DNA of 64,000 bases from Glaucostegus cemiculus (taxonomy: Eukaryota), in the NCBI GenBank assembly GCA_976551045.1, contig CDPCPM010000060.1, forward strand, positions 4,712,001 to 4,776,000, given 5' to 3'. The notes under the pieces are model-generated. The model made no database searches, had not been told where the DNA came from, and saw only the letters and a program-made list of their open reading frames with translations. The translations under genes were made by a program, and so were the position numbers. The number at the start of each line of letters is the position of its first letter. Position 1 is the first letter of the stretch. Positions 10,198 to 63,180 of this stretch are shown here, piece by piece.

Positions 10198-11680
10198 TTG
10201 GCAAGTGGGGTTAAAGAAAATCCCAAGGTTTTTTTTTCCACTTATGTGAAGAGCAGAAGAATGATGAGAGTAAAGGTAGGACCGATAGAGACAAAGGTGG
10301 GAAGATGTGCCTGGAAGCTGTGGAAGTGGGTGAGGTTTTCAATGAATACTTCTCTTCCATATTCACCAAACAGAGGTGCCTGGATGACGCTGATGACAGT
10401 GTTGGTAAGGTTAATGTTCTGGAGCATGTAGATATCAAGAGAGAGAATGTGTTGGAGCTGTTAGAAAATATTAGGACAAATAAGTCGCCGGGGCCTGACG
10501 GAATAATCCCCAGGCTGCTCTGCAAGGTGAGGGGGGAGATTGCTGAAGCGTTGGCTAGGATCTTTGAGTCCTTGTTGTCCACAGGAATGGTACCAGAGGA
10601 TTGGAGGGTGGCAAATGTTGTCTCCTTATTCAAAAAAGATAGTAGGGATAGTCCAGGGAATTACAGACCAGTGAGCCTTACGTCTGTGATGGGTAAGCTG
10701 TTGGAAAGGATTCTTAGAGATAGGATCTATGAGCATTTAGAGAATCATGGACTGATTAGGGACAGCCAGCATGGCTTTGTAAAAGGAAGATCATTTCTCA
10801 CAAGCCTGATAGGGTACTTTAAGGAAGTGACCAGGCAGATTGATGAGGGCAGTGCAGTAGATGTGGTCTACATGGATTTTAGTAAGGCGTTTGACAAGTT
10901 CCACATGGTAGGCTTCTTCAAAAGGTCAGAGGGCAAGGAATCCAGGGAGACTTGGCCATGTGGATTCAGAATTGACTTGCCTGTAGAAAGCAGAGGGTTG
11001 TGGCAGAGGGAGTGCATTCAGATTGGAGGGCTGTGACCAGCAGTGTCCCACAAGGATCGGTTCTCGGACCTCTACTTTTCATGATATTTATTAGTGACTT
11101 GGGTGAGGAGGTAGAAGGGTAGATTAGCAAGTTTGCAGACGACACAAAGGTCGGTGGTGTTGTGGATAGTGTGGAGGGCTGTCAAAGATTGCAGTGAAAT
11201 ATCGGTAGGATGCAGAGCTGAGCTGAGAAGTGGCAGACGGAGTTCAATCGAGAGAAGTGTGAGGTGGTACACTTTGGAAGGACAAACTCCAAGGCAGAGC
11301 ACAAGGTTAATGGCAGGATTCTGGGGAGTGTGGAGGAGCAGAGGGATCTGGGGGTTCATATCCACAGATCACTGAAAGTTGCCTCACAGGTGGATAGGTT
11401 AGTTAGGAAAGCTTATGGGATGTTAGCTTTCATAAGTCGTGGGATCGAGTTTAAGAGCCACAAGGTAATGATGCAACTCTACAAAATTCTGTTTAGACCA
11501 CACTTGGAGCACTGTGTCCAGCCTGGTTGCCTCATTATAGGAAGGATGTGGAAGCATTGGAAAGGGTCCAGAGGAGATTTCCCAGGATGCTGCCTGGTTT
11601 GGAGAGTATGGATTATGAGGAGAGACTAAGGGAGCTAGGGCTTTACTCTTTGGAGAGAAGGTGGATGAGGGGAAACAAGA
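10198..11680 (+). mobile_element. Outer 5'-truncated CR1 LINE, left part (RT region with frameshifts and stops)
   Basis: ORF pieces contain NYRPVSLTS, SQHGFVKGRS, VDVVYMDFSKAFDK, FADD (11132-11143) and RPHLEHCVQ. The sequence breaks at ...RMRG and resumes at 14807. Confidence 0.93.
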
Positions 11681-14600
11681 GATCATTGGGATCTCTTCTC
11701 AGGAAGGTGGGACCTGTACAGACAGGACGGGTTACACCCGAACCAGAAGGGGGCCAATATCCTTGCGGTTCAGTTTGCTAGAGTGGTTGCGGAGGGTTTA
11801 AACTAATTTGTGAGGGGGATGGGAACCGGAGGAGTAGGGCAGAGGAAGAAAGGGATGGAGAAGAGTTGGATCGAGCAGGTAGAGAGGCTTTGGGGAAGGA
11901 GAGGCAGGGTGCAGGCTATAAAAGTGGTAAAGTGGATGGACTAAAGTGTGTTTACTTTAATGCGAGAAGTGTCAGGAATACGGGAGATGAATTGAGGGCT
12001 TGGATAAGTATGGGGGACTATGATATTGTAGCTATAACTGAGACATGGCTGTCATCAGGACAGGAGTGGATATTGAACATTCCTGGTTTTCAGTGTTTAA
12101 AAAGGGATAGGGAAGGGGGAGAGAAGAGGAGGAGGGGTGGCGATATTGGTCAGGGATGATGTTATGGCTGCAGAAAGGGTGGATTTTGTGGAAGGATCCT
12201 CTTTCGAGTCGGTGTGGAAGTGAGGAACAGGAAAAGTGCGGTTACACTGCTGGGAGTATACTATAGGCCCCCCGGTAGCAGTAGAGATATAGAGGAGCAG
12301 ATTGGCAGGCAGTGTTTGGACAGAAGCAAAGATAATAGGGTTGTAATAATGGGGGATTTCAACTTCCCGAATATAAACTGGGACATGCTCAGTGCCAAAG
12401 GTTTAGATGGGAACGAGTTTGTTAAGTGTGTCCAGGATGGATTCCTGATGCAGTATGTTGACAGGCCGACTAGAGGGAATGTGGTGTTAGATCTGGTTTT
12501 AGGAAATGAACTGGGACAGGTGAGGGATCTACTGGTGGGTGAGCATTTGGGGGACAGTGATCATTGCTCGATAAGCTTTAGAATTGTCATGGACAGAGAT
12601 AGGTGCAGAGAGGACAGGAAGATATTTAATTGGGGAAGGGCAGACTATGAGGCTATAAGGAGAGAACTTATGAGTGTAAATTGGTAAGTCCTTTTTGAGG
12701 GGAAGTGTACTGTGGAGATGTGGACGTTGTTGAGGGATGTTTTACAGGACGTTAGGGATAAATATGTCCCAGCGAAACAGAGGAGGAATGGCAGGGTGAG
12801 GGAACCGTGGGTGACGAGAGAGGTGGAACATCTGGTTAGGAGGAAGAAGGCGGCTTATGTACCGTGTAAGAGGCAAGGCTCGGATGTGGCCTGTGAGGAA
12901 TATAGTACAGTGAGGAAGGAACTTAAGAAAGAGCTGAGGAGAGCTAGAAGGGGTCATGAAAAGATGTTGGCTCGTAGGGTTAAGGAAAATCCCAAGGCTT
13001 TTTTCTCATATGTGAAGGGCAGAAGGGTGGCTAGGGTGAAGGTAGGTCCAATTAAGGATAAAGGTGGGAGGATGCACCTGGAGGCAGCAGAAGTAGGGGA
13101 GGTACTGAATGAATACTTCTCTTCCGTATTCACCAAGGAGAGGGGTCTGGATGACACAACACAGAGTGCTGGTAAGGGTAATGTTCTTGAGTGTGTAGCT
13201 ATCAAGAGGGAGGAGGTGTTGAAATTGTTAAATAATATCAAGACGGATGAGTCTCCGGGGCCTGACGGAATATTCCCCAGGCTGCTTCGAGAGGCGAGGG
13301 AGGAGATTGTTGATCGGCTGGTGAGGATCTTTGAGTCCTCGTTGTCCACGGGGATGGTGCCGGAGGATTGGCGGGTAGCGGATGTTCTTCACTTGTTTAA
13401 GAAAGGTAGTAGGGATAGTCCGGGAAATTACAGACCGGTGAGTCTCACGTCTGTGGTGGGTAAGCTGATAGAAAGGATTCTGAGGGATGGGATCTATGAG
13501 CACCTGGAGAGTCAGGGACTGATTAGGGACAGTCAGCATGGCTTTGTGAAGGGAAGATCTTGCCTCACGAGCCTGATAGAATTCTTTGAGGAGGTGACGA
13601 GGAAGCTTGATGAGGGTAGTGCGATGGATGTAGTCTATATGGATTTTAGTAAGGCGTTCAGTAAGGTTCCTCATGGCAGGTTTCTTCAGAAGGTCAGAGG
13701 TCGAAGCATCAAGGGGAGTTTGGCTGTGTGGATCAGGAATTAGCTTTCCTGTAGAAAGCAGAGGATTGTGGTGGAGGGAGTACCCTCGGATTGGAGGGCT
13801 GTGACTAGTGGTGTCCCGCAGGGATCGGTTCTGGGGCCTCTACTCTTTGTTATATTTATAGATGACTTAGATGAAGGAGTGGAAGGATGGGTTGGTAAGT
13901 TTGCGGATGACACCAAGATCGGCGGTGTGGTAGATAGTGTGGAGGACTGTCGGAGCTTACAAAGGGATATTGATAGGATGCAGAGCTGGGCGGACAGGTG
14001 GCAGATGGAGTTTAATCCGGAGAAGCGTGAGGTGGTGCACTTTCGGAGGACGAACTCCAGGGCAGAGTATGAGGTAAATGGTAAGGTACTTGGCAGTGTA
14101 GAGAAGCAGAGAGATCTGGGGGTTCATATCCACAGTTCACTCAAAGTTGCCTCGCAGGTGGATAAGACAGTTAAGAAGGCTTATGGGATGTTAGCTTTTA
14201 TAAATCGTGGGATTGAGTTCAAGAGCAGAGAGGTGATGATGCTGCTTTACAAAACTCTCGTTAGGCCGCACTTAGAATATTGTGTTCAGTTCTGGTCGCC
14301 GCATTATAGGAAGGATGTGGAGGCGTTGGAGAGGGTACAGAGGCGATTTACCAGGATGATGCCTGGATTAGAGGGTATGGAATATGAGCAGAGGCTTAAG
14401 GAGCTAGGGCTCTACTCGTTGGAGGAGGAGGAGGATGAGAGGGGACTTGATAGGGGTGTATAAGATATTGAGAGGAATAGATAGAGTTGACAGCCAGCGC
14501 CTCTTTCCCAGAGCGCAGATGCACAAGACAAGAGGGCATGGCTTTAAGATAGTGGGTGGAAAGTTTAGGGGAGATGTCAGAGGGAAGTTTTTCACCCAGA

Positions 14601-14809
14601 GAGTGGTTGGTGCATGGAATGCACTGCCTGGGGTGGTAGTAGAGGCAGATACGTTGGACAGGTTCAAGAGATTGTTAGATAGGCACATGGAAGAATGTGG
14701 AATAGTAGGATATGTGGGAGGAAAGAGTTAGATTGTGAGACGTTTGAAGGATGGCACAACTTGGTGGGCCAAAGGGCCTGTTTTGTGCTGTATTGTTCTA
14801 TGTTCTATG
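11681..14809 (+). mobile_element. Inner CR1 LINE nested in the outer CR1 (ORF1 3' end, full-length but disrupted ORF2, 3' UTR, tail)
   Basis: Begins with the ORF1 C-terminus DHWDLFSGRWDLYRQDGLHPNQKGANILAVQFARVVAEGLN* (11681-11806), then APE (FNARS, TETW, GDFN, SDH) and RT ([12 protein letters not shown]); ends in TGTTCTATGTTCTATG. Confidence 0.95.
11797..14731 (+). pseudogene. CR1 ORF2 (APE endonuclease + reverse transcriptase), disrupted
   Basis: ORF pieces 11866-12159, 12214-12687, 12712-13743, 13768-14463 and 14435-14731 tile a complete ORF2; in-frame stops at 12685 and 13741 and small frameshifts near 12120, 12215 and 14430. Confidence 0.92.
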
Positions 14810-53284: not shown

Positions 53285-56200
53285 TACAAGAAAATAGGAG
53301 GAGAAGTAGGCCACCAGTCCTCTTAAGCCTGCCTCACCATTCAAGGCTGATCTATGCTGGCCTCACCTCTTCTGTACCGGTTCTGCAAAAACCCTCTCAG
53401 AGGAGAAATTACTAAACACCTATGTTTTAAATGACCAACACCTTATTTTGTATCTATGTCCCCTTGTTTGTAATTCTCCCACCAGTGAAAACATCTCTAC
53501 ATCTACCTTGTCAATCCTCCATAGGATCTTGTATGTTTGAATAAGGTCAGACCCCATTCTTTGGAACTCCAAGGAATACAGATACAACCGTCTAGCCTCT
53601 CTGGATAGGACAACCCTCTTATCCCAGGAATTAACAGTGAATATCCCCTGGACCCTCCCCAGTGCTACTATATCCCTTTCTATTCATAAGGTAAGTGTTC
53701 CAAAACTGTATCCCTAACGTCACCTCATCAACACCTCATACAAATGTAAGGAAACCTTCCCATTCTTAAACTCTAACCCTTTCACAATAAACACCATTTC
53801 CTTTCTTAGCTATATGTGGACCAGCCTGCTAACATTTGATTCATGCACAGGAGCACCTAGATACCTTTGAAATTCACTCATTTTTCAGGTCTCTCTCAAT
53901 TTAGATAATAACCTAACTTTTGATTCCTCTTACTGAAGTGCATGATCTCACATTTTTCCACATTAAACTCCATTCACCAGGTTTTCACCCAATCACCCAA
54001 TCTATCTATATCCCACTGCAGAATCACAATGTCCTCTTTACAACATGCCCTTCGACATATCTTGTAACATTGCAAATTTGGAAACTTTACATTTCATTCC
54101 TGCTTCCATGTCATTAGCGTACACAGTAAACAAGTGAGGGCCAAGAATTAATCCCTGTGATACTCCACTATTTATGTCCCTCCAGCTTAATAAAGATCCA
54201 TTTATTCCAACTCTGTTTTCCATGAAACAGCCAGTTTTCAATCTAATACATTTCCTCCAGTATCTTGGGCTCTTAATTTATGCACCTTGCCAAATTCCTT
54301 TCGAAAACTAAATTCATTACAGCAGAGCCCTGGGGAGTGGTACAGAACGGAGGGACCTTGGGATACAAGTACATGGTTCACTGGAAGTAGAGTCACAGGT
54401 ATACAAGGTAGTGAAAGGAGCTTTAGGCACACTAGCCTTCATAAGTCAGGGCATTGAGAATAAAAGTTGGGAGGTCATAGTGCAGTTGTACAGGATGCTG
54501 TTGAGGCCATACTTGGAATATTGTGTTCAGTTTTGGTCACCTGCTATAGGAAAGATGTTATTAATCTGGAAGGAGTACAGAAAACATTTACAAGCAGGCT
54601 GCCAGGACTTGAGGACTGAGTTATAGGGAGAGGTTGGACAGGCTGGGACTTTATTCCTTAGAGCATAGGAGACTCAGAGATGATCTTACAGAGGTGTATA
54701 AAAATCATGAGAGGCATAGGTATAGTGAATGAACTCAGCTCCCCACCCCTGCCACCAGAGTTGGTGAATCAAGAACTGGAAGGCATAGGTTTAAGGTGAG
54801 AGGGGAAAGATTTAAGAGGAACATGAGGGGCAACTTTTTTTTTTACACAATAGTCATATCTATGTGGAATCAGCTGCCAGAGGAAGTGGCTGAGGCAAGT
54901 AGAATAACAACTTCTAAAAGACAGTTGGATAAGTACATGGAATGAAAAGGTTTAGAAGGTTATGGGCCGAATGGTGGCAAATGGGACTAGCTTGGATGGG
55001 GCACTTTGGTCAGCATGGATCAGTTGGGCGGAAGGACCTGCTTCTGTGCTGTATGATTCTATGACATCAACAAGTTCCTTTCAATCAACTGTTCTAGTCA
55101 CATCCTCAAAGAATTCAAGCAAATTTGTCAATCATGATTTACCTTTCATAAAACTATATTGAAGAGGTATGATTATATTAAGCTTTCCCAAATCATTAGC
55201 CATTTGCTCTTTGTTTACTGACTCTACTATCTTGCCAACAATGGCTGTTAAAATATCTGGCCTGTTGTTCCCCACTGTCTGTTGTCCACCCTTTTTTTGA
55301 ACAAGGGAGTTATATTGTCTGTTTTCCAATCCTCTGAATTTAGCAAGTTTTGAAATTTTTCAACCAATGGGTCTACTATCTCTGCAGCACCTTCCTTTAA
55401 AACAAAACAAAAACAAAAATGGGTGCAGGCAACGTCCCAGTGATTTATCAACCTTTCGCCCTCTGAGTTTCTCAAATACTTTATCCTTTGTGATTGGAAT
55501 TTTTATAATCATGTTATTTGAAATTGGCCCATCTATTATCTCAGGGATATTTGCTGTGTCCTCCACAGAAAAGATTTAATATTTCTGCCATTCCTGTGTT
55601 TCCTGTTATTAATTCATCAGCCTTGTTCTTCAGAGTCTCACACTTCCCTTAGCTGCCTTCTTTCTATTTATATACCCACATAAACCCTTAGTGTTTGTTT
55701 TGATAATACAGGCAGGTTTTCTCTCAAAAATCAATTTCCCCCTTATGAGTTTTAAAAAAATCTTTTGCTGCTAGATCCTAAAACTTTCCGAGTCCTCAGG
55801 CCTACCGCCACCTCATGCCACTTCATGTGCCTGACTTCTCAACTTAATGTTATCCTTGATATTCTCTGTTATTTACGGATTGTGCCCGTTTCTCATTGGA
55901 TATCTCTTTCTAATTGGAATAAATTCCTGCTGAGCATTATGGACCAGCTGTTTGAAAAGCTGCCCCTGGTCATTGATTGACCTGTCTCTCATCTTATTTT
56001 CCTAGTCTACCTTACACAACTCCATCTTCATATCATTATAATCACCCTTAAGTTGAAGAACATGGTTTTTGTCCTGTGGTGTCCACCCTCAAATTGCATC
56101 TGGAATTCTTTCCTATTGTGGTCACTATCCCCCAGGAGATGTTTAACCATAAGATCTCTTACTATTCCTTCCTCAATAATCATGACCATATCTAAAATAG

Positions 56201-56436
56201 CCTTTTCCCTGGTAGGGTCTGTAAGATACTGTTCTAAGAAGCAATTCCTGGCACATTCCATAAATTTTTCTTCTACAATGCCCTTGCCAGTTTGGCCTGT
56301 CCAAATTAAAATCTAATTGCATGTTCCCTTCAAAGATATCCTAGATATTTCCCCACTTATGCTCCACCTTATAGAGGGGTAATATTTCAGGGGCCTATAG
56401 ACGTATGTCTTCTTTCCCTTGCCTATTCATGATATC
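53285..56436 (-). mobile_element. Old CR1 (APE to 3' UTR) hosting two later CR1 insertions; continues at 60342-60420
   Basis: Minus-strand ORFs: FLEQYLTDPTREKAILD..LGDSDH, NNRPDILTAIVGK, SGVSQGLILGP..KFA; 3' UTR near 53290-53360. Confidence 0.85.
54321..55064 (+). mobile_element. 5'-truncated CR1 inserted antisense into the older CR1
   Basis: LAFISQGIE...RPYLEYCVQFWSP; tail GCTGTATGATTCTATGAC. Confidence 0.88.
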
Positions 56437-56466
56437 GGTATCTTATCCTAGATTCGATAAGATATC

Positions 56467-57090
56467 GAGAATCGGTATCTTATCCTAGATTCCGTTGGAG
56501 GGGATGACCCGGCAGAAGAAGATCATGGCAACCGGGACATTGACACCGCACCTGGTACTGTGGTCAGGGGGGTTAAGAGCAATATAGTGGTTATAGGAGA
56601 CTCGATAGTGAGGGGGACAGATAGCAGATTCTGTGAGTCCGACAATGTATCCCGGATGGTGTGTTGCCTCCCTGGTGCCGGGGTAAGGGATATCACGAAC
56701 CGGTTCCAGAATATCCTGAGGAGAGAGGGGGAACAGCCAGAGGTCTTGGTACATGTTGGCACCAATGACATAGGCAGGAAAGGAGAAGGGGTCCTGAAGG
56801 AAGAATACAGAGAGTTAGGAAGGAAGTTGAGGAGAAGGACCCCTAAGGTGGTAATCTCAGGATTGCTGCCTGTGCCACGTGCAAGCAGTAGCAAGAACAG
56901 AAAGATTTGGCAAATAAACGCGTGGCTTAGTGACTGGTGCAGGGGGCAGGGCTTCAGATTCCTGGACCATTGGGACCTTTTTTGGGGGAGGGACGACCTA
57001 TACTGCAAGGATGGGTTACACCTCAACTCAAAAGGGTCCAGAGTCCTGGCGGGATTATTTAACATAGCTGTTGGGGAAGGTTTAAACTAA
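56467..57090 (+). CDS. CR1 ORF1p, SGNH/GDSL esterase domain (N-terminally truncated)
   Basis: Open frame ENRYLILDSVGGDD...VVIGDSIVRG...VHVGTNDIG...KDGLHLN...GEGLN*; the GDS, GxND and DxxH blocks are intact. Confidence 0.9.
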   Translation, partial: ENRYLILDSVGGDDPAEEDHGNRDIDTAPGTVVRGVKSNIVVIGDSIVRGTDSRFCESDNVSRMVCCLPGAGVRDITNRFQNILRREGEQPEVLVHVGTNDIGRKGEGVLKEEYRELGRKLRRRTPKVVISGLLPVPRASSSKNRKIWQINAWLSDWCRGQGFRFLDHWDLFWGRDDLYCKDGLHLNSKGSRVLAGLFNIAVGEGLN

Positions 57091-60000
57091 TCAAGCAGGG
57101 GGATGGGACCCAGAATATTAGGGTAAAAGTAGATAGAGGAAGGCAAGAGTTTAATAAAAATAGGTCAAAGTTAGTGCGTGATCAGGATGGCAAGACGGAC
57201 AGGCAGGTAATTAATCAAGGTAACATGCTGAATGACAATAGTACAGTAAATAAGGATATTAGGTCACAGAATGTTAGACGAGAGGTGGAGGCAGATAAAA
57301 AGAAGTCCATGACAGTGAGCAGTCAGGATCGTAAGAAGGGCGAGGAAATGGAAATTAAGGATAAGTTGCTCAAGAAAGGAAGCGCAACAAAATCAACAGT
57401 GGTTAATGAGCTAAAGGTATTATACTTAAATGCACGTAGCATCAGGAACAAGGCAGATGAACTAGCAGCACAGCTGCAGATTAATAGATATGACATTGTG
57501 GCAATTACTGAGTCGTGGCTGCATGATGGATGTGACTGGGAGCTCAATGTCCAGGGGTACACAGTGTATAGGAAGGATAGGCGGGAAGGTAGAGGGGGTG
57601 GTGTGGCCATGATGGTTAGTAATGAGATAAAATCAATAGAAAGGAAGGATATTAGGTCAGATGAAGTGGAAACTTTATGGGTGGAGCTAAGGAATAGCAA
57701 GAGTAAGAGGACAGTTGTAGCTGTTGTATATAGGCCCCCTAATAGCAATCAGGAGGTAGACCATAAGTTGCGGTTAGAGATAGAAAAGGCATGTCAGAGT
57801 GACAATATCAAAATAATTATGGGTGACTTTAACATGAAGGTGGACTGGGAAACCCAGCAAGGCAGCAGTTCTCAGGAGAGCGAGTTTGTTGAATGTTTAC
57901 GGGATGGCTTTTTGGAACAACTTGTTGATGAGCCCACCAGGGGATCGGCTGTTTTGGATTGGGTGTTGTGTAATGAACCGGAGGTGACTAGAGAACTAAG
58001 GGTAAAGGAACCATTAGGAACTAGTGACCATAATATGATTGAGTTCAGAATGAAATTTGAAAAGGAGAAGCTGATGACTGGAGTGTCGACATTTCAGTGG
58101 AGCAAGGGGAATTACAGAAGGATGAGAGACGAGTTGGCCCAGATTGATTGGGAATATAAGCTTGCTGGAGGGACGGCCGAACATAAATGGGTGGAATTTA
58201 AGCAAGTAATAAAGAAAATGCAGGACAGACACATTCCAAGAAAAAAGAAGGTTTTAAATGGAAAAAGGGCACAAATGTGGATAACGAGAGAGGTGAAAGC
58301 TAAAATAAGAGCAAAAGGGAGGGCATATAAGGTAGCAAGAAAAAGCGGAAAAACAGAAGACTGGGAAACTTTTAAGAACCTACAGAAAGAAACTAAGAAG
58401 GTTATTAGAAAAGAAAAGAGAAATTACGAAATGAAGTTGGCAGAAAATATTCAAAAGGATACTAAGAGTTTTTTTAAATATATAAGAAGCAAAAGAGAGA
58501 CGTGGGTTGATATAGGACCGATAGAAAATGAGGTGGGAGAGATTATTATGGGTGATAAAGAGATGGCGGAGGTGCTAAATCAGTATTTTGCGTCGGTCTT
58601 CACGGTAGAAGATATTAACAATATACCGGTTAGTCAAGGGTCTCGAGGGACGGAATTAAAGACAGTTAAGGTTACGAGAGAGAAAGTGTTGGGGAAGCTA
58701 AATGGGTTAAAGACTGATAAGTCTCCGGGACCGGATGAGATACATCCCCGTGTACTGAAGGAAGTAGCTCTAGAAATAGTGGAGGCATTAGTGATAATTT
58801 TTCAGGAATCGATAGACGCTGGAGAGGTGCCGGAGGACTGGAAGGTCGCAAATGTAGTTCCATTGTATAAGAAAGGTGGGAGACAGCACAGAGGAAATTA
58901 CAGACCTATCAGTCTTACATCTGTGGTGGGGAAGATACTAGAATCGATCCTCAAGGATGAGGTGATGGGATACATGGAGGTGCAAGGCAAGATAGGTCCT
59001 AGTCAACATGGATTCGTGAAAGGAAGATCCTGCCTGACCAATTTATTGGAGTTTTTTGAAGAAATCTCAAGCAGGGTGGACAAGGGAGAGGCCGTAGATG
59101 TGGTGTATTTAGACTTTCAGAAGGCATTCGACAAGGTGCCGCACAAAAGACTAATTAGTAAGATGAGAGATCACGGAATAACGGGCAGGATAACAGAATG
59201 GGTGGAGAGTTGGCTGGATGGCAGGAAACAGAGGGTGGGAATAAAAGGATCGTGTTCTGGTTGGCTGCCGGTTACTAGTGGTGTTCCGCAGGGGTCGGTG
59301 TTGGGGCCCCTTCTTTTTACCTTATATATTAATGATTTAGACGAAGGAGTCAATGGGTTTGTGGCCAAGTTTGCAGATGACACTAAGATTGGGGGAGGAG
59401 TGGAGAGTATTGAGGAGACAGGAAAGCTACAGAGAGACTTGGATATTCTAGGAGAATGGGCGAAGAAATGGCAGATGAGGTTCAACGTGGAAAAATGTGC
59501 AGTTGTACACTTCGGAAGTAGAAATGGAAGGGCAGACTATTATCTAGAAGGAGATAAAATTGGAAGCACAGAAGTACAAAGGGACTTAGGGGTGCTCGTA
59601 CAGGATAACCTAAAGGTTAACCGCCAGGTTGGATCGGCAGTAAGGAAAGCGAATGCTATGTTGGCATTTATTTCGAGGGGTATAGTATATAAAAGCAAGG
59701 AAGTGTTGATGAGGCTATACGGGGCACTGGTGAGGCCTCACTTGGAGTACTGTGTGCAGTTTTGGGCCCCATACCTTAGGAAGGATGTGCTGATGTTGGA
59801 GAGGGTTCAGAGGAGATTTACTAGGATGATTCCTGGGATGAAAAAGTTTACATATGACGAGCGACTGTCGTCACTTGGACTGTACTCGTTGGAGTACAGA
59901 AGAATGAGAGGGGACCTAATAGAAACGTACAGGATGTTGAAAGGAATGGACCAAGTGAATGTGGTCAAGCTGTTTCCCTTGGTGGGGGAATCCAGGACAA

Positions 60001-60209
60001 GAGGACACAAACTTAGAATTAGAAGAAGCAGGTTCATAACAGAGATAAGGAGGAATTTCTTTAGCCAGAGGGTGGTGAACCTGTGGAACTCCTTACCACA
60101 GAGAGCAGTGGAAGCCAGATCATTGGGGATATTCAAGAAGGAAATAGATAGATATCTAATTGGTCAAGGTATCAAGGGATATGGAGATAAGGCAGGGATT
60201 TGGACTTAG
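57081..60209 (+). CDS. CR1 ORF2p: AP-like endonuclease + reverse transcriptase, uninterrupted
   Basis: The 1011-aa ORF in the track (57174-60209) is open upstream to 57063. APE motifs LNARS, TESW, YRPP, GDFN, SDH; RT motifs [12 protein letters not shown]. The start is given at the slippery site; the true initiation mode is unknown. Confidence 0.95.
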   Translation, partial: FKLIKQGDGTQNIRVKVDRGRQEFNKNRSKLVRDQDGKTDRQVINQGNMLNDNSTVNKDIRSQNVRREVEADKKKSMTVSSQDRKKGEEMEIKDKLLKKGSATKSTVVNELKVLYLNARSIRNKADELAAQLQINRYDIVAITESWLHDGCDWELNVQGYTVYRKDRREGRGGGVAMMVSNEIKSIERKDIRSDEVETLWVELRNSKSKRTVVAVVYRPPNSNQEVDHKLRLEIEKACQSDNIKIIMGDFNMKVDWETQQGSSSQESEFVECLRDGFLEQLVDEPTRGSAVLDWVLCNEPEVTRELRVKEPLGTSDHNMIEFRMKFEKEKLMTGVSTFQWSKGNYRRMRDELAQIDWEYKLAGGTAEHKWVEFKQVIKKMQDRHIPRKKKVLNGKRAQMWITREVKAKIRAKGRAYKVARKSGKTEDWETFKNLQKETKKVIRKEKRNYEMKLAENIQKDTKSFFKYIRSKRETWVDIGPIENEVGEIIMGDKEMAEVLNQYFASVFTVEDINNIPVSQGSRGTELKTVKVTREKVLGKLNGLKTDKSPGPDEIHPRVLKEVALEIVEALVIIFQESIDAGEVPEDWKVANVVPLYKKGGRQHRGNYRPISLTSVVGKILESILKDEVMGYMEVQGKIGPSQHGFVKGRSCLTNLLEFFEEISSRVDKGEAVDVVYLDFQKAFDKVPHKRLISKMRDHGITGRITEWVESWLDGRKQRVGIKGSCSGWLPVTSGVPQGSVLGPLLFTLYINDLDEGVNGFVAKFADDTKIGGGVESIEETGKLQRDLDILGEWAKKWQMRFNVEKCAVVHFGSRNGRADYYLEGDKIGSTEVQRDLGVLVQDNLKVNRQVGSAVRKANAMLAFISRGIVYKSKEVLMRLYGALVRPHLEYCVQFWAPYLRKDVLMLERVQRRFTRMIPGMKKFTYDERLSSLGLYSLEYRRMRGDLIETYRMLKGMDQVNVVKLFPLVGESRTRGHKLRIRRSRFITEIRRNFFSQRVVNLWNSLPQRAVEARSLGIFKKEIDRYLIGQGIKGYGDKAGIWT

Positions 60210-60604
60210 AATAGTAGGTTGTTGTTTTTTTTTTTTTTTTTTCCCCCCCCCACCTTCCCTTCCCTTCCCTTCCCTTTGGAGCAGACTCGATGGGCCGACT
60301 GGCCTGCTTCTGCTCCATTGTCTTGTGATTTTGTGATTTTGTGATATCAACCCAAGCTGATTTTACATTACTGTCCACCAGCTCCATATCAAGACTCAAA
60401 GCTGCTCTGATACCTTCCTCGAGTCACAATTGACACCGTTCGCTCCTTGAATAATTGTAAACATATCAGTTATCCCTCAAACAACACCATTCTAAAAGAA
60501 ATAATCTGGTCATTATCACATTGTTTTTGTGAGCTTGCTGCATGTGAATCGAATGCCACATTTGCTGCTTTACAATAACAATTATTCTTCAAAAGTTCTT
60601 ACAA

Positions 60605-61799: not shown

Positions 61800-63180
61800 C
61801 AAGCCTGCACAGAAGAGTGAGAGAGCAGCAGTGATGGAGGTTTCAATCATTAGTAGGGGAGGGTGGGGAGAGGAAAGTAAGCATTTCAGTGGCTGTAGAC
61901 TCAACTCCAGGATGTGTTGTGTCCCTAACTCAGGATCAAGAGTGTCACTGGATAGCTGCAGAGCATCTGGAAAGGAAGCAGTGAACAAAGAGGTTGCGCT
62001 CCATATTGACATCAACAACATAGGTAAGGAAAGGAATGAGTACATGCAGACAAAGTTTAGGGAGCTAAAACAAAAGAGCTCAATGGTGGTAATCTCAGAG
62101 TTATTCGCAGTGACATGTACAAACAAGTACAGAAATAGGTGATTGGAGCAAATGAATGTATGGCTGGAGCGATGGTGCAGGATGAAGGGCTTTTGATTTC
62201 TGAAGCAAAAGGACAATTTTTGGGCCAGGATAGGCCTGTACAAATCAGACAGATTGCACCTCAGCAAGACTGGGACCAATATCCTCACAAGGAGGTTTGT
62301 TAGTGCTATTGGTGAGGATTGTTAAACTAGCTTGGCAGGAGATGGGAACCTCAAGCAGAATTCAAGGAGAGAAACAGAGCAGGAAGTGAAGGTTTGAAAA
62401 GTACTAAGTGAAATAAATAGACAGCAGGAACAAAGGCAAGCAGTAAATGGGAAAAATACAGAAAAAAATGTTAAAATGGAAAACTGAAGGTACCATATCT
62501 AAATGCTCACATTTGCAACGTAAATGAATTAATGGTACAAATAGAACATACTGTGTCTGTTTACTTCTAAGTGTCATTACAGAAACATGAGGAAACTGAA
62601 TGTTCAAGGAATATTTGGCAGGCAGAAAGGAAAAGGAGATGGTGAAAGGCTATATAAAGGGAGGAGATCAGTGCAGTGGTTAAAAATGATCTTAGATCAA
62701 CAGACATTATATATAATTACTGCCATTTGGGTTGGACCAAGAAAGAGAAAAGGGCAGGAAATATTGGGAGGAATTATTTATAGGCCACCAAATAGTAGCC
62801 ATAATAATGGGCATGGCATAACTCAGGAAATTAGAGGTCAGGATAACTTGGATAATATCATAATCATGGGGGACCTTTATCTATTCTTAGATGGGAGAAG
62901 TTAAATTAGTAGTAATGAGGTGGAAGATAAATTCATGGAATTAGTACAAAATGGTTTTCTTAATCAATATTTTGAAACCTAGTTTTGTTCAATGAGGAGG
63001 AGTTCATTGATAATCCTTTACAGAAGATTCACTATTGCTTGATACAATTCTTCAATCCAAAACTAGGGTCTTAAATCTAAACAAATCAAACTACAAGGGT
63101 GAGGAGTGAGAATACTTCCACAGATTGGGGAGCTTCACTAAAGGCATGGTGATGGGAATGTAGTGGCTAACATTTAAGAA
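61800..63180 (+). mobile_element. Old CR1: decayed ORF1 esterase and ORF2 APE
   Basis: RMCCVP..HIDINNIG..VVISEL, the junction GTTAAACTAG at 62321-62330, then YRPPNS..IIMGDL. Confidence 0.8.

Follow-up and report, generated by a model that had tools for sequence, protein, structure and literature searches.

Here, we identify a conserved signal at the junction of ORF1 and ORF2, the two open reading frames of esterase-type long interspersed nuclear elements (LINEs), which we take to be of the CR1 type, starting from a young copy in a 64,000-nucleotide stretch of the Glaucostegus cemiculus genome (contig CDPCPM010000060.1, positions 4,712,001 to 4,776,000; hereafter the window, with position 1 as its first letter). 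In this copy, which belongs to a family that we call A, ORF1 ends in GGT TTA AAC TAA, so that the heptamer T_TTA_AAC lies in X_XXY_YYZ register directly before the stop codon; ORF2 lies in the −1 frame, and a G-rich block (G-block) follows the heptamer (Table 1). Judged by its pattern of base conservation, the junction is a real and ancient nucleotide-level recoding signal, and a programmed −1 ribosomal frameshift on U_UUA_AAC that yields an ORF1-ORF2 fusion is the probable explanation. What would be new is a canonical heptamer without a canonical structure, in a LINE clade. An earlier note on this DNA, made from the sequence of the window, had proposed such a frameshift, and its description of the site is confirmed: the −1 frame is closed by TAA at 57060 to 57062, 7 codons before the TTT of the heptamer, and then open to 60209 (1048 codons from 57063), 110 codons separate 57081 from LKVLYLNARS at 57411, and AGGGGGATGGG begins at 57097 with its G run from 57098, at base 11 downstream of the heptamer. 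TTTAAAC is present once in the window copy, and six further X_XXY_YYZ words all lie inside ORF2.

Several lines of evidence support a signal at this junction. First, the T_TTA_AAC junction is a family signal and not chance. Because arbitrary stretches totalling 800 kb of the 2.85-Gb assembly gave just 7 ORF1 ends, families were then gathered by protein searches, six in all, two with queries that held the terminal Leu-Asn and four with queries that ended before the junction; ORF1 ends were anchored on the catalytic D-x-x-H region, with a profile whose last position is 14 residues short of the stop. TTTAAAC lies near the ORF1 end in 160 of 189 anchored ends (five duplicates removed), the rest being mostly copies that are old, rearranged or wrongly anchored. 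A later sample, gathered with junction-free queries, has it at 35 of 39 anchors (36 loci), the four misses being two false second anchors and two single-base changes, and includes a family with TGT as the codon before TTA AAC. All 30 family A loci, the window copy included, have the same junction, and in 28 the −1 frame runs through to the endonuclease motif, the other two being internally deleted. A single metagenome scan added 23 loci from other animals' contigs, of which 11 reach the junction (10 with T_TTA_AAC, 1 with G_TTA_AAC), 11 end before it and one, L283, belongs to a different esterase clade and is without the heptamer. By best named-protein match, L265 to L270 come out as amniote-type (turtle, lizard), L261 and L263 as nearest to a sea cucumber protein, while L264 falls in an unnamed clade; named lizard and turtle ORF1 proteins have the Leu-Asn end at the same spacing from the catalytic His.

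Second, the heptamer is conserved as bases. We compared 20 lineages, namely eight family majorities and four single copies from this genome and eight single copies from other animals' contigs; as the lineages are related and 12 of them come from one genome, they are not 20 independent draws. L262, L267, L281 and a form of family B with TAC in place of the ORF1 stop were excluded from this count, and changes were counted by parsimony on a tree of length 6.5 from which the last three columns had been left out. Leu is encoded by TTA in 20 of 20 lineages and Asn by AAC in 19 of 19, with zero changes each, as compared with 4 to 9 changes in six other conserved Leu codons, 4 to 5 in two Asn codons and 2 to 9 (mean 4.6) in a further 25 conserved ORF1 codons. 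The heptamer opens with T in 19 of 20 lineages, with one change at this base, while 63 third positions changed 5.7 times on average and at least twice; the amino acid of the codon that holds this first base changes 7 times (Gly, Ala, Cys, Ser, Phe). The sole change gives G_TTA_AAC. According to excerpts of a review, to which its citations below also refer, U_UUA_AAC is among the most shift-prone heptamers on mammalian ribosomes and is used by infectious bronchitis virus, and G_UUA_AAC is listed for equine arteritis virus (PMC5009743). The seven bases 3' of the stop vary freely, with 4 to 8 changes each. Majority states of the ORF1 stop are TAG or TAA and never TGA; TGA was seen in single old copies only, such as L281. 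A lower divergence of the heptamer than of upstream sequence within families was left unused, being biased by copy choice and base composition.

A constraint on the proteins, i.e., on Leu-Asn at the ORF1 protein C-terminus and Gly in the ORF2 frame, together with codon bias or common descent, might also be thought to hold these bases in place. Leu-Asn indeed ends 30 of 74 dereplicated ORF1 proteins, and in 18 of 20 lineages the G-block codes for Gly. However, the unchanging positions are the silent ones, by which this explanation is largely refuted; other Leu codons of the region use four to six codons, the alignment of the solved ZfL2-1 esterase goes no further than position 212 of the 216 in the profile, and related esterases end without Leu-Asn. 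We give this explanation next to no weight. The wider set of ORF1 proteins, too, is in favor of frameshifting: 43 of the 74 C-termini close with two residues for which a canonical heptamer can code, as against 4.7% of internal dipeptides. Among the 44 ends other than Leu-Asn, 13 are of this kind (12 Gly-Asn, 1 Lys-Asn), and more Phe-Phe and Lys-Asn pairs stand at the same position before short tails. An outgroup search with a ZfL2-1-like esterase brought up further Leu-Asn families only.

Third, the frame is kept open from just before the heptamer. The last stop of the −1 frame lies 2 to 7 codons upstream of the heptamer in 19 of 21 rows and 38 codons upstream in two. Across the linkers of the 17 lineages with a matched endonuclease motif (23 to 114 codons each, 841 in all), there are 0 stops in the −1 frame versus 59 and 94 in the other frames; of the four rows without a match, an in-frame variant of the motif is present in two, a third is interrupted by a stop just before the motif and the fourth reaches the contig end. 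The two computational checks advised in the earlier note, for silent variation in the heptamer and for stops or frame changes in the linker, both came out in favor of its proposal, with neither found across lineages, which leaves the proposal partly supported, with reinitiation as its rival. No AUG lies between the heptamer and the endonuclease motif in 7 of 17 lineages. An AUG lies further down the linker in 6 of 17, including family A, in which the in-frame ATGs are at 57225, 57309 and 57348 and the first is preceded by two out-of-frame ATGs. In the majority reading of seven family C copies, the first Met is codon 182 and the motif is at codon 49, which puts this Met ∼130 codons inside the endonuclease.

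These start codons bear on the idea that ORF2 is translated from its own shorter transcript, made from an internal TATA-like promoter, or from an RNA spliced at the junction. TTTAAA is similar to a TATA box, and in 14 of 20 lineages the TAG after the heptamer might pass for a splice acceptor. However, a subgenomic RNA needs an AUG before the endonuclease, which 7 of 17 lineages lack; the TAA and TAC lineages have no AG at the would-be acceptor, and the bases upstream are purine-rich. We consider both versions highly implausible.

Fourth, the G-block is conserved in sequence and in place. All 20 lineages have G at positions 18, 19 and 21 counted from the heptamer start, of which two are third codon positions of the −1 frame, and the length of the spacer between heptamer and G-block is constant, though changes of three would preserve the frame. 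A conserved linear motif ∼11 nt 3' of the shift site is thus present in all 20 lineages, with a sequence unlike that of the arterivirus motif. A G-quadruplex was predicted in 2 of 21 rows (G4Hunter-type scores 0.84 to 2.04). The earlier note's idea that the G-block acts as stimulator gains from its nucleotide-level conservation and fixed spacing, and the role itself is proposed by analogy. [quoted passage not shown] The CR1 junction shares with PRRSV a short, linear, unstructured motif from the 11th base after the shift site, but its motif is G-rich, its shift site is different, and a trans-acting protein would be hypothetical in CR1. The G-block would be the most likely stimulator, acting without a Watson–Crick fold, which is the least certain part of our proposal. 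Protein-stimulated frameshifting outside viruses, in a repeat that is among the most abundant of vertebrate genomes, is an attractive extension that we hold to be somewhat doubtful.

Heptamer and G-block might instead serve RNA processing: TTTAAA would be a weak hexamer for internal polyadenylation, helped by the G-block as an auxiliary element downstream, and the two would yield an ORF1-only mRNA, ORF2 being started in some other way. TTTAAA is a minor poly(A) hexamer, G-rich downstream elements are known, and CA often precedes the G-block (C in 9 of 20 lineages, A in 15 of 20). However, polyadenylation does not need the ORF1 register, the invariant C or the base-exact spacer; stronger hexamers, one silent change away, are the majority state in no lineage, and the AUG-less ORF2s are left unexplained. 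Such a function appears very improbable to us.

Family B is informative about the stop codon. In 21 of its 38 copies, the stop is replaced by TAC and ORF1 ends 14 codons later, while heptamer and G-block are kept. The TAC copies are the younger ones (median 2.0% from their own majority versus 3.4%), and the two forms differ by 23 ORF2 substitutions, of which 11 are silent and 12 are not, none creating a stop. Among 13 TAC copies examined over their whole length, one has a frame of 976 open codons starting at the heptamer; the majority reading is open for 978, its first Met lies beyond the endonuclease motif, and its first 8 codons hold no near-cognate start. An expanding lineage can, therefore, do without the stop adjoining the heptamer, which is not required for an intact ORF2. 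This result counts against the adjacent stop as a stimulator, which the earlier note had offered as one option, and weakens any fixed stop–restart geometry as well.

We suggest that, on reaching U_UUA_AAC in the last codons of ORF1, some ribosomes would slip back by a single base and then cross the variable linker into the endonuclease and reverse transcriptase, giving a Gag-Pol-like ORF1-ORF2 fusion, presumably at a low ratio to ORF1 protein. In family A, the junction would read ...GEGLN-LIKQGDG.... The G-block may stimulate slippage at the mRNA entry channel, either through a bound protein or as a small G-quadruplex, with slow termination at an adjacent stop as an optional helper. AUGs just after the stop in some lineages may give a second route by reinitiation, and frameshifting and reinitiation may coexist in lineages with such an AUG.

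Several observations weigh against frameshifting. Heptamers without a stimulator are usually poor at shifting, and we found no conserved stem-loop or pseudoknot stem 3' of the heptamer (folding z −1.5 to +1.7 in 21 rows, for 70-nt windows against shuffles in a model that covers neither pseudoknots nor long-range pairs). Because these windows fold no better than shuffles, a classical pseudoknot is unsupported, and the likeness to coronaviruses drawn in the earlier note is limited to the heptamer. The TA of the ORF1 stop is kept in 19 to 20 of 20 lineages. The TAC form is just 23 ORF2 substitutions from its parent and not cleanly one clade. The lineages suffer from their relatedness and from the share of a single genome, and 12 rows are single copies. 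The DNA of the Gly-Asn, Lys-Asn and Phe-Phe clades was not found in viral, prokaryote-genome or metagenome contigs or in this genome, so that a swap of heptamers in these clades is suggested by proteins only. Finally, some start codons do lie close to the stop: an in-frame AUG 2 nt after it in 4 of 17 lineages, all amniote-type; an in-frame ATG 5 nt after it in a young family with the heptamer kept (L306 to L336, ORF1 frame of 338 to 346 codons), where it sits inside the G-block region and is missing from an older sister family; and GTG, TTG, ATC or ATT in many other lineages. For mammalian L1, translation of ORF2 is believed to begin without dependence on its own AUG (PMC5009743), and a missing AUG does not, therefore, decide for frameshifting.

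These start codons are the strongest ground for termination-reinitiation, in which the ribosome would terminate at the end of ORF1 and begin anew, in the −1 frame, at a nearby AUG or near-cognate codon, ORF2 protein being made free and heptamer, stop and G-block forming a signal that holds the ribosome. Most lineages without the close AUG have near-cognate codons within the first 8 codons, an open −1 frame is expected under reinitiation too, and a restart near the new, 14-codon-shifted stop is compatible with the intact ORF2 of the TAC lineage. LINE precedents exist in SART1, for which reinitiation has been shown, with a stop–start arrangement and a downstream element, and in L1, for which an AUG-independent form has been proposed (excerpts of PMC3708506, PMC5972666 and PMC5009743). 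Reinitiation, however, gives no reason for the invariant word to match a canonical slippery heptamer exactly and in register, for the single variant of this word to be a further known shift site, or for the word to be kept even in lineages that possess an AUG. Moreover, neither L233 nor the family B TAC form offers a near-cognate codon within its first 8 codons, the stop has moved by 14 codons in the TAC lineage, and the codon 2 nt after the stop is variable (ATG, GTG, TTG, TGG, TGT, AAG, AGT, GCA, GCG). A start codon that overlaps or adjoins the stop is not conserved, with an AUG there in one additional family besides the 4 of 17 lineages. No upstream third position besides those of Trp and Met is invariant among the 20 lineages, in a comparison that included no search aimed at the TURBS motif (a ribosomal binding site upstream of the termination codon) of calicivirus-type reinitiation. 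With in-frame AUGs 2 to 5 nt after the stop in several lineages, AUG-independent reinitiation stays a real rival, albeit one that we judge unlikely.

The proposed frameshift resembles several known systems in part. With canonical −1 frameshifting in retroviruses, long terminal repeat (LTR) elements and coronaviruses, the CR1 junction shares an in-register X_XXY_YYZ heptamer at the end of the structural ORF, a polymerase ORF in the −1 frame and silent-site conservation (PMC5009743). It differs in its host, a non-LTR retrotransposon, in the stop directly after the heptamer, in having no predicted conserved pseudoknot or stem-loop and in that no protease to cut the fusion was seen. Among APE-type LINEs, ORF2 of Dictyostelium TRE5-A and TRE3-A is said in excerpts of a review to need a −1 frameshift (PMC5911963); these elements share the non-LTR type, the ORF2 in the −1 frame and the proposed frameshift, whereas their ORF1 is unrelated and the comparison is with the review's statement rather than with a site. 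For Paramecium LINEs, +1 frameshifting, reinitiation or readthrough has been suggested (excerpt of PMC5405496). In the excerpted literature, translation of LINE ORF2 is an open question, with SART1 and L1 assigned to reinitiation (PMC3894237, PMC3708506, PMC5972666). CR1 shares with SART1 and L1 the bicistronic LINE mRNA and low ORF2 output, and SART1 has a downstream element; in contrast, CR1 has no conserved stop–start overlap or AUG, and its ORFs overlap in the −1 frame across the heptamer. ZfL2-1-type LINEs (PDB 4c1b; excerpt of PMC3905857) share the SGNH esterase ORF1, but related esterases end without Leu-Asn, and one such locus (L283) has no heptamer. The primary papers on turtle CR1, SART1, L1 and the esterase aside, a full-text literature search found no report of frameshifting in CR1; CR1 goes unmentioned in the excerpts of the frameshifting review (PMC5009743), and those of PMC11835228, PMC4255032 and PMC3905857 have nothing on the CR1 ORF1/ORF2 junction.

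LINE cases tested so far point to reinitiation. If frameshifting holds true for CR1, ORF2 protein would be tethered to the lipid-binding ORF1 protein as Pol is to Gag, and ORF2 boundaries drawn at the first Met would be wrong in these families (inside the endonuclease in family C). The junction would also have to be retained in engineered CR1 assays. A 30-nt cassette would then be a direct test of a structure-free frameshift stimulator, for which the natural variants, i.e., the moved stop, the gained AUG and G_UUA_AAC, are ready-made controls.

Table 1. Features of the window copy and of two further junctions in the window
Feature	Position	Strand	Remarks
Young CR1-type LINE copy, 5'-truncated, family A	56434..60345	+	∼99% identity to full-length relatives from 56465
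ORF1 3' two-thirds, SGNH/GDSL esterase domain	56465..57090	+	Pfam Lipase_GDSL_2, E 5e-17; PDB 4c1b
Last stop of the −1 (ORF2) frame, TAA	57060..57062	+	Bounds where an ORF1 ribosome can enter the frame
Slippery heptamer T_TTA_AAC in X_XXY_YYZ register with ORF1 (Leu-Asn)	57081..57087	+	
ORF1 stop codon	57088..57090	+	TAA here; TAG in most lineages; sense TAC in young family B sub-lineage
G-rich block, candidate linear stimulator	57098..57107	+	Begins at 11th base after heptamer
Linker, 110 codons, Lys/Asp/Asn/Arg-rich, open in the −1 frame	57081..57410	+	No Pfam match
APE-type endonuclease domain of ORF2	57426..58031	+	Pfam Exo_endo_phos, E 3e-13
Reverse transcriptase domain of ORF2	58872..59522	+	Pfam RVT_1, E 5e-35; ORF2 ends at 60209
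8-bp tandem repeat at 3' terminus	60323..60345	+	
Heptamer, stop and G-block of family B	11797..11823	+	ORF2 47% identical; linker without AUG before endonuclease
Decayed junction, third old copy	62319..62345	+	Heptamer disturbed; stop and G-rich block still recognizable

The name CR1 goes back to the earlier note, and we presume it to be right: the features of the window copy, i.e., an ORF2 with APE endonuclease and reverse transcriptase, an SGNH esterase ORF1, a 3' short tandem repeat, 5' truncation and target-site duplication, fit the name. The ORF1 profile matches the ORF1 esterase of PDB 4c1b with E 1e-38, the nearest named ORF1 relatives are from rays and sharks, and family A ORF2 is 40 to 42% identical to ORF2 of amniote-type and echinoderm-type contigs. 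Copies of one 7-bp word at 56430 to 56436 and 60342 to 60348 flank the element and are read as its target-site duplication. The match to full-length relatives, in which the ORF1 frame has 308 to 309 codons, begins only at 56465; ∼100 ORF1 codons are missing, including the start and the Cys-rich N-terminal part. Because of this truncation, the junction signal belongs to family A and is unusable by the window copy from an ORF1 start of its own. A 22-bp stretch is duplicated at the 5' junction of the copy (56434 and 56471), and the copy is inserted in an older, decayed LINE on the opposite strand (55060 to 56402, minus strand). Full-length family A ORF1 (L007 and relatives) contains a ∼17-residue direct repeat at codons ∼75 to 115, between the Cys-rich coiled-coil part and the esterase.

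Other copies show various rearrangements. At 10299 to 14713, a family B CR1 fragment abuts a second copy that starts ∼41 codons before its ORF1 end, with no evident host DNA separating them. Large internal deletions occur in L016, L023 and L050, that of L016 beginning inside the G-block and joining it to the far end of ORF2; private indels put ORF1 and ORF2 in one frame in L050 and L032. In family D (L172 to L199), the G run just upstream of the heptamer often expands or contracts in old copies, which breaks the register. The ZfL2-1-like esterase ORF of L283, a decayed copy, stops at TGA CTG, after which its frame stays open for another 73 codons, and stop readthrough is a possibility that this arrangement raises for its clade. 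Three ray gene models (P0035, P0037 and P0044; transmembrane protein 204 and ABHD14A-like isoforms) contain a piece of the CR1 ORF1 esterase, by either exonization or an annotation artefact.

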